From: Escherichia phage HMD-6
Direction: 5' to 3' (one strand)
Length of the DNA stretch: 64,000 nt
Sequence record: PQ505080.1
Under the pieces are notes generated by a model. The model saw only the letters and a list, made by a program, of their open reading frames with translations, did no database searches and was not told where the DNA came from. This document shows positions 25,940 through 26,225 of this stretch, in pieces (positions within the stretch are counted from its first letter, which is position 1; each line of letters starts with the position of its first letter). The translations under genes were made by a program, and so were the position numbers.

Positions 25940-26014
25940 ACCAGTAAAAACTTAAATATCTGTACTATAAGGATTCGTATGTTTTATGTCCACCCCAGAG
26001 CAGAGGATAGTACC

Positions 26015-26095
26015 TGTCCGTGATACGGACACTACTGTCCGTCACGCGGACACATCTGCCCGTAATACGGACACTAACTGTCCGCAATACGGACA
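26015..26095. promoter_or_regulatory. array of four phased 17-bp palindromic sites (operator- or iteron-like)
   Basis: TGTCCGTGATACGGACA (26015-26031), TGTCCGTCACGCGGACA (26036-26052), TGCCCGTAATACGGACA (26057-26073), TGTCCGCAATACGGACA (26079-26095); 7-3-7 inverted repeats, centre-to-centre 21-22 bp. Confidence 0.6.
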
Positions 26096-26225
26096 CATAA
26101 AGAATATAACTAAAATAACTAAATAATAAAAATAAAAGATCTAGTACTTATGGTACTAAAGTACATATACTTAACTTATGTAGAATATACTAGATCCTAA
26201 GTACCATGTTTTAAATTTATTACTT

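Follow-up and report, generated by a model that had tools for sequence, protein, structure and literature searches.

Replication of PLE, a satellite dependent on phage ICP1, is initiated by its RepA protein; genetics and electrophoretic mobility shift assays have established this role and have shown that the protein binds to semi-palindromic iterons in the origin of PLE (Barth et al., 2020; PMC7145576). PLE RepA was placed in the RepA_N family by structure and not by sequence, replication of PLE needs the SF1B helicase of the phage, and the mechanism of RepA_N proteins has been described as unknown (PMC7145576). In phage lambda, ori-lambda (NC_001416) carries four annotated 18-bp dyad iterons with starts 20, 24 and 23 bp apart, followed by a same-strand A-rich stretch and then by a palindrome. 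Here we describe a locus of Escherichia phage HMD-6 that combines four dyad repeats, the gene for a 116-amino-acid winged-helix protein and an A/T-rich block, and that is on balance probably a lambda-like iteron origin of an rV5-like phage with its own initiator gene alongside. It lies in a stretch of 64,000 nucleotides (record PQ505080.1; hereafter the window, in which all unprefixed coordinates are given) that by its sequence comes from an rV5-like myovirus of the genus Vequintavirus. Functional statements in what follows are inferred from sequence, structure prediction and comparison. The elements of the candidate origin are these:

25589..25939, plus strand: gene for the 116-amino-acid winged-helix protein, the proposed initiator, homologous to the RepA_N-type iteron-binding domain, which here stands alone
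26014..26032, plus strand: iteron 1, C TGTCCGT GAT ACGGACA C, core TGTCCGTGATACGGACA at 26015-26031, a perfect dyad
26035..26053, plus strand: iteron 2, C TGTCCGT CAC GCGGACA C, core TGTCCGTCACGCGGACA at 26036-26052
26056..26074, plus strand: iteron 3, C TGCCCGT AAT ACGGACA C, core TGCCCGTAATACGGACA at 26057-26073
26078..26096, plus strand: iteron 4, C TGTCCGC AAT ACGGACA C, core TGTCCGCAATACGGACA at 26079-26095
26097..26229, plus strand: A/T block, the proposed DNA-unwinding element, about 20% G+C in 100-bp windows

The PLE origin and the locus in the window both have direct repeats with inverted sub-repeats, placed in non-coding DNA near the gene. The repeats themselves differ: those of PLE number three, measure about 30 bp and contain 13-bp sub-repeats that surround a poly-A tract, whereas the four units of the window are 19 bp long, each with 7-bp arms about a 3-bp centre. 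PLE RepA also possesses an extra C-terminal domain, the window protein corresponding to the N-terminal domain alone, and PLE is a satellite whereas the locus described here belongs to an autonomous virulent myovirus of E. coli. With ori-lambda the window shares four dyad iterons of 18-19 bp spaced about two turns apart, a same-strand A-rich block, an inverted repeat and an upstream promoter that would read through the origin. However, ori-lambda is located inside the O gene, whereas the array in the window begins 74 bp after the stop codon, and lambda O recruits P-DnaB through a C-terminal domain that the window protein does not have, the phage supplying its own primase-helicase. Homology of the 116-amino-acid protein to lambda O was considered and rejected (BLASTP E 0.3, hhalign probability 0.1%). 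For the RepA_N initiators of Firmicutes plasmids (RepA of pSK41 and pTZ2162; PDB 4PTA, 4PT7, 4PQL and 5KBJ), which with the N-terminal domain of DnaD are also among the closest known systems, phmmer gave E values of about 1.2; these origins lie inside the rep gene and the proteins carry host-specific C-terminal domains, again unlike the window protein.

The four palindromes reported by the initial annotation, which was made from the letters of the sequence alone, were found exactly where it had put them, and the spacing that it gave as 21-22 bp was measured from start to start as 21, 21 and 22 bp. The mean of 21.3 bp corresponds to two helical turns, and the further description of the sites as helically phased therefore holds approximately. 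All four sites are flanked on both sides by an invariant C, which makes the repeat unit a directional 19-mer that encloses a 7-3-7 dyad. In some genomes iteron 3 has the consensus half-site TGTCCGT, and in most relatives iteron 4 reads TGTCCGT GAT and is identical to iteron 1. A search for the motif elsewhere, which the initial annotation had suggested, returned with up to two mismatches four matches in the 64-kb window, all in the array (0.09 expected; none of 100 shuffles reached four). The matches were likewise confined to the array in the complete genome of phage FV3 (136,947 bp, joined from three pieces and 98% identical to the window at the locus), which we used for whole-genome comparison. 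A DnaA-box cluster and the IHF consensus were looked for and not found, and nothing contradicted the remark of the initial annotation that the half-site fits no host operator, host regulators not being tested systematically.

All 118 Vequintavirus records keep the locus, and the surrounding 1.3 kb are 90-99% identical in 117 of them (including rV5, FV3 and several BASEL phages) and 80-90% identical in one more. Besides the window, our alignment of 12 genomes took in six phages from GenBank and five metagenomic contigs, the latter from a lineage about 90% identical; about three distinct lineages are represented in it. For the third codon positions of the flanking genes pairwise diversity amounted to 0.11-0.17, and for the 74-bp spacer that separates gene and array to 0.13. 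The array (0.028) and the A/T block (0.041) were less diverse and evolve at a rate 3-5 times lower than that of synonymous sites. Changes in the array fall in the N3 centre or in the adjacent half-site bases, with the sole exception of FV3 iteron 2, where GCGGACA has become GCGGGCA, and the linkers between the repeat units are invariant. In iteron 1 both half-sites are identical throughout the 12 genomes and variation is limited to the N3 centre. Purifying selection acts on both the array and the A/T block. Given the low diversity relative to the neutral spacer and third positions, we conclude that the two are functional DNA that is sharply bounded from neutral DNA. The same observations bear on the explanation that the repeats are accidental or without function, for instance the remnant of a mobile element. 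Short repeats can arise by chance, which is a general caveat, but four matches against 0.09 expected, a diversity about five-fold under the neutral level and retention of the locus throughout the genus make this explanation scarcely credible.

The A/T-rich stretch noticed by the initial annotation downstream of the palindromes is real. Its top strand is A-rich from 26097 to 26137, after which come AGATCT and a perfect 9-bp inverted repeat, GATCTAGTA (26138-26146) and TACTAGATC (26188-26196). By nearest-neighbour free energy the block is the least stable 100 bp of both the window and the FV3 genome; its value of -100.7 kcal/mol is 5.5 standard deviations (SD) under the genome mean of -132 (SD 5.7), and the next lowest value is -108. 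Folding of the block as DNA was no better than that of shuffled sequences (z -1.0). A clustering of GATC (Dam) sites was rejected as a feature of the block, since these genomes have about 5 GATC per kb and two sites are not significant. A second A/T-rich non-coding stretch, with repeated GAAAACGAAAAA...AGATCGAGTAC units, occurs outside the window at 116.2-116.5 kb of FV3 (contig L012, 16230-16540), where no winged-helix gene adjoins it.

The small helix-turn-helix gene that had been placed upstream of the array corresponds to the open reading frame at 25589-25939. An AlphaFold2 model of its product (pLDDT 79) consists of a short helix with a beta-hairpin, a winged helix and a C-terminal helix, and its closest solved relative is PDB 4RO3, which is the N-terminal domain of PLE RepA from Vibrio cholerae (PMC7145576). 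The protein matched PHROG 12838 ('replication initiation protein') with an E value of 2.5e-80 and, weakly, PHROGs 8102, 428 and 270, which have the same label. Among the matches in a search of the viral models of BFVD were several 'replication' proteins and ORF88 of ICP1; the latter is Gp88/Odn, which carries a RepA_N-like domain and whose DNA-binding half mimics PLE RepA (PMC8263062). No match to Pfam RepA_N (PF06970) was obtained at E <= 1. Borderline scores below the gathering threshold were seen for DUF6945 (27.1 bits against a cut-off of 28) and HTH_36 (24.5 against 25), and precomputed tables list PF13730 for cluster relatives. Relatives outside the genus are scarce, with five clusters in a search of 5.8 billion proteins and ten representatives in a full HMMER scan, and a scan of IMG/VR with the family alignment gave no confirmed relatives. 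Annotation of the gene is divided: RefSeq has 'replication initiation protein' through PHROG-based naming, and GenBank records have 'putative transcriptional regulator'.

Among the distant homologues, the 182-217-amino-acid proteins P0011, P0012 and P0014 have C-terminal extensions, which in P0011 and P0012 end in short acidic tails (...DEDPDAPF and ...DCDEAPF) resembling the C-terminal tip of single-stranded DNA-binding protein; such tails, which the 116-amino-acid protein does not have, could recruit replication proteins. In the metagenomic phage protein P0013 (L016, 5001-5687) a GIY-YIG nuclease is fused to the same winged-helix domain, a combination resembling that of the anti-satellite nuclease Odn of ICP1, and a DUF6945 gene of the same domain family lies just upstream of it (L016, 4522-4992).

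The last of these proteins bears on a further explanation, namely that the locus serves some other DNA-protein machine: a pac site for a small-terminase-like helix-turn-helix protein, a site for partition or for organising the nucleoid, or else a decoy or target in conflict with satellites, for which ICP1 Odn and the PLE iterons provide the comparison. The domain family has indeed been recruited to an anti-satellite nuclease (PMC8263062), and P0013 is among the homologues. In addition, the large terminase gene is situated about 4.5 kb downstream in the same transcription unit, and several sequences, the contigs L026 (end at 3505), L027 (end at 3519) and L028 (end at 1839) and GenBank MG065672 (end 74 bp past the gene), stop in or just after the array or the A/T block. 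These ends are likely due to a dropout of coverage at 19% G+C, where breaks in contigs are expected, real DNA ends being the alternative; moreover, the rV5 genome was reported to be circularly permuted and to have no defined ends (PMC3606486). Domain searches of the 116-amino-acid protein gave no match to terminase, ParB or nuclease domains, and it is not obvious why a virulent phage should need partition. The sites belong to the genome of the phage itself, where they lie next to the gene and are under purifying selection, unlike a weapon against a foreign element. We therefore regard a machine of this kind as quite improbable.

We compared the window with sister genera of the same subfamily. 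Genomes of Mydovirus, Seunavirus and Henunavirus have two origin-like modules, each with its own PHROG-8102 winged-helix paralogue and repeats, whereas Vequintavirus has one. In Klebsiella phage VLCpiM5b (Mydovirus), of which 144.5 kb of the 145-kb genome were assembled and the last 543 bp excluded, module A (88.0-88.6 kb; L007, 2174-2660) has two repeats of 18-20 nt with the dyad TGCTCAA-N-TTGAGCA and starts 23 bp apart; an A-rich block adjoins them, and the gene is on the opposite strand, with the repeats preceding its start. Module B (2.7-3.2 kb; L030, 2680-3205) has the same order as the window, with the gene first. Two copies of CCCCGGACACTGGTGAC directly follow the stop codon, a third CGGACAC lying between them, and lead on to an A-rich block, then a GATC cluster and then non-coding DNA rich in G+C. 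The repeats of each module are unique to their own loci, and the two least stable 100-bp windows in the 144.5 kb scanned (-101.6 and -105.4) are the A-rich blocks of the two modules. The order gene, repeats, A-rich block and GATC cluster is common to modules and window, while the modules differ from the window in having two repeats instead of four, in the repeat sequences and, in module A, in the strand of the gene.

The 116-amino-acid protein is related to the module A protein by BLASTP (E 8e-6) and also by fold; to the module B protein no BLASTP similarity was found. The A/T block of the window resembles the blocks of module B, as only 1-10 of 500 dinucleotide shuffles scored as well (2 of 500 for Mydovirus, 1 of 500 for Seunavirus), a shuffle-tested similarity that rests on low-complexity sequence, whereas its alignment with the module A blocks or with lambda was no better than chance. 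Matches to O-like PHROGs were obtained only with the Mydovirus paralogues, and these were weak (E 1e-5 to 1e-4).

Module B could be followed through four phages, which have the following proteins and repeats:

VLCpiM5b (Mydovirus): module B protein taken as reference; repeat CCCCGGACACTGGTGAC
SPLA5a (Seunavirus): module B protein 67% identical to the Mydovirus one; repeat GACAAAAACG
PVP-SE1 (Seunavirus): module B protein 36% identical to the Mydovirus one; repeat TGCAAAATTTGCA
Hena1 (Henunavirus): module B protein 40% identical to the Mydovirus one; repeat TGACAAATTTGTCA

The repeats of the four are entirely different, while the A-rich block and the GATC cluster (AAAGATCTTTTATAAAAGA) are conserved and remain recognisable. 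Such lineage-specific pairs of protein and repeat, next to a conserved and easily melted block, argue that it is the small protein that binds the repeats. The initial annotation had proposed cooperative binding by a dimeric regulator, the protein encoded upstream of the array, and this comparison of sequences leads us to favour that assignment. PLE shows the same behaviour, as variants of its initiator co-vary with the repeats (PMC8263062). In lambdoid phages, too, type-specific pairs of initiator and iterons lie beside a more conserved A/T block.

The initial annotation had left the choice between an operator and an iteron-type origin. If the locus were an operator array, a winged-helix repressor or activator would bind the four dyads cooperatively, the A/T block would be promoter or UP-element DNA, and the targets would be the boundary between the early operon of polynucleotide kinase, phosphoesterase and winged-helix protein and the 192-amino-acid protein, tRNA and late genes, or else a block to read-through. 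Dyads of 17 bp are classic operators of dimeric helix-turn-helix proteins, the GenBank annotation is in keeping with such a role, and in fold and profile searches LexA, MarR, SlyA and CodY scored nearly as well as the RepA_N proteins other than 4RO3. Yet the array is downstream of the gene and about 500 bp before the next open reading frame, and a consensus scan found no plus-strand sigma-70-like promoter within 26096-26230, phage-specific promoters being outside the reach of that scan. As the motif occurs at one locus of the genome only, at most one promoter could be regulated through it. An operator would also leave unexplained why the A/T block is the stability minimum of FV3 and why the Mydovirus modules are the two least stable spots of their genome, and the closest characterised homologue is an initiator and not a repressor.

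Three lines of observation, by comparison, are those expected of an iteron origin: the regularly spaced and genome-unique direct repeats, in four 19-bp units; the adjoining A/T-rich block as candidate unwinding element, at the FV3 stability minimum; and a gene in cis that is homologous to a known initiator domain, the N-terminal domain of PLE RepA (4RO3). We favour the iteron origin, with the upstream protein as its binder, because the motif is unique in the genome, the A/T block is the minimum of stability and the repeats co-vary with the protein; the operator we retain as the main rival, rather unlikely but worth keeping in view. The two roles may coexist, since initiators of iteron replicons often autoregulate.

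Several observations weigh against an origin and have to be set beside these. The protein stops at residue 116, just past the DNA-binding domain, and has no C-terminal domain, whereas in RepA_N proteins and lambda O it is this domain that is thought to recruit the replisome. The 192-amino-acid protein encoded downstream was considered as the missing domain and rejected, as neither the longer homologues nor any solved structure resembles it and its only match is to PHROG 12226, a family without assigned function. Distant homologues of 182-228 amino acids, on metagenomic phage contigs, have no obvious repeat arrays adjacent to them, one weak two-copy repeat apart. In three genera the module A repeats are directly 5' of the ribosome-binding site of the gene, in a divergent promoter region; this is where an autoregulatory operator would be expected and it favours the operator explanation. 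However, iteron-binding initiators commonly also autoregulate, and the position is therefore no argument against an origin. The A-rich blocks of module B end in a good sigma-70 promoter (TTGATC-16-TATAGT in Mydovirus), so that these blocks could be promoter regions, again as the operator explanation would have it. GC skew was rejected as a marker of the origin: the cumulative minimum of FV3 is near the locus but coincides with a switch in the direction of transcription, and the global minimum of Mydovirus lies elsewhere. The rV5 genome paper had relied on skew alone in its search for the origin, without success, and the points that it found follow the direction of transcription (PMC3606486).

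Should the locus be an iteron origin, it might work as follows. The 116-amino-acid protein would be made early, from a sigma-70-like promoter at 25525-25554, and its dimers would bind the four 19-bp dyad repeats, where the spacing of about 21 bp would put them on one face of the helix. The bound dimers could bend the DNA or wrap it, in the manner of lambda O in the O-some, and the stress would be released in the adjoining A-rich block, which would melt and become the entry point for the phage replisome. Candidate enzymes of the latter are encoded at other places in the genome, namely a gp4-like primase-helicase, an SF1B/Pif1-like helicase and a family-A polymerase. Transcription reading through into the array may aid opening, as at ori-lambda. 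A broader proposal, which we find possible but would not call probable, is that in Vequintavirinae a RepA_N-type DNA-binding domain alone is the minimal initiator. Opening would then come about by wrapping together with an extreme unwinding element, and helicases would load without a recruiting domain. Pairs of initiator and iterons would be exchangeable cassettes beside a conserved unwinding block, some genera would have two origins, and the same family would be the source of PLE RepA and of Odn.

In the literature that could be searched, no publication was found that deals with the repeats, the A/T block or the origin of any Vequintavirinae phage, rV5 and PVP-SE1 included, or that describes the modules of the sister genera. 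What appears to be new is the candidate iteron origin with a RepA_N-type initiator domain, and what would be unusual about it are the domain-minimal initiator, the apparent exchange of repeat/protein cassettes and the presence of two modules in some genera. The locus provides a precise origin candidate of about 220 bp of DNA and one 116-amino-acid protein. Few coliphages are isolated as often as the rV5-like phages, which are also used in typing and therapy collections. If the assignment is true, initiators of the RepA_N/PLE-RepA type, which are regarded as rare among Gram-negative systems, would extend to a large group of virulent enterobacterial phages, and the protein would be an example of a domain-minimal initiator. 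The locus would also offer a handle for engineering, for instance of origin-dependent plasmids or replication-defective phages, and would aid the study of defence systems and satellites that target phage origins.

The surroundings of the candidate origin are made up as follows:

Minus strand, upstream of the polynucleotide kinase gene: RNA ligase and Sir2 genes
Plus strand: genes for polynucleotide kinase and metallophosphoesterase, then the 116-amino-acid protein gene (25589-25939)
25525..25554, plus strand: sigma-70-like promoter TTGACA-18-TATTTT with an upstream TG, a match in the consensus scan only
25940..26013, no strand: spacer of 74 bp from the stop codon to the first repeat, evolving neutrally
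Between the 116-amino-acid and the 192-amino-acid protein genes: non-coding stretch of 660 bp
26230..26520, no strand: G+C-rich conserved non-coding element, about 57% G+C, directly 3' of the A/T block
Downstream of the non-coding stretch, in this order: the 192-amino-acid protein (function-unassigned), small open reading frames, a tRNA cluster, spanins and the large terminase

The promoter at 25525..25554 is directly 5' of the winged-helix gene and equals P76 in the RefSeq record of rV5; judging from its position, transcripts starting there would pass through the gene into the repeat array. The G+C-rich element is present in every one of the 118 Vequintavirus records and absent from other genera. 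Substitutions in it are distributed over the codon positions as 14/24/16, without periodicity, compared with 9/10/40 in the neighbouring gene, and the small hypothetical open reading frames that the rV5 and BASEL records annotate in it are probably not genes. An invariant strong hairpin is present at about 26241-26285. RNA folding of the element gave weak z-scores on the two strands (-1.65 and -2.15), the fold of the alignment showed no compensatory changes or covariation, and an Rfam search of 24000-30000 returned tRNAs only, with nothing in the array or the element. It could be a part of the origin, such as a loading signal for primase or helicase, or else a small RNA.

Two further observations were made downstream. 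A leader motif, GCTCGTTACAAAGCGATACAG (26546-26567), precedes the 192-amino-acid protein gene and recurs as GCTCGTTACAGAGCCATACAG in the phi92-like phage PD06 (L008, about 1486-1506), where it is 5' of the first rightward gene past an A/T-rich divergent junction; the two may be a shared regulatory or RNA element. Inside the tRNA cluster, at 28946-29044, ARAGORN calls a 99-nt tRNA-like gene with a four-base anticodon (atcc), which has an Rfam tRNA score of 35.5 bits and whose equivalent is annotated in the BASEL phages as a 97-nt tRNA-Lys; an intron or an insertion may lie within the gene.
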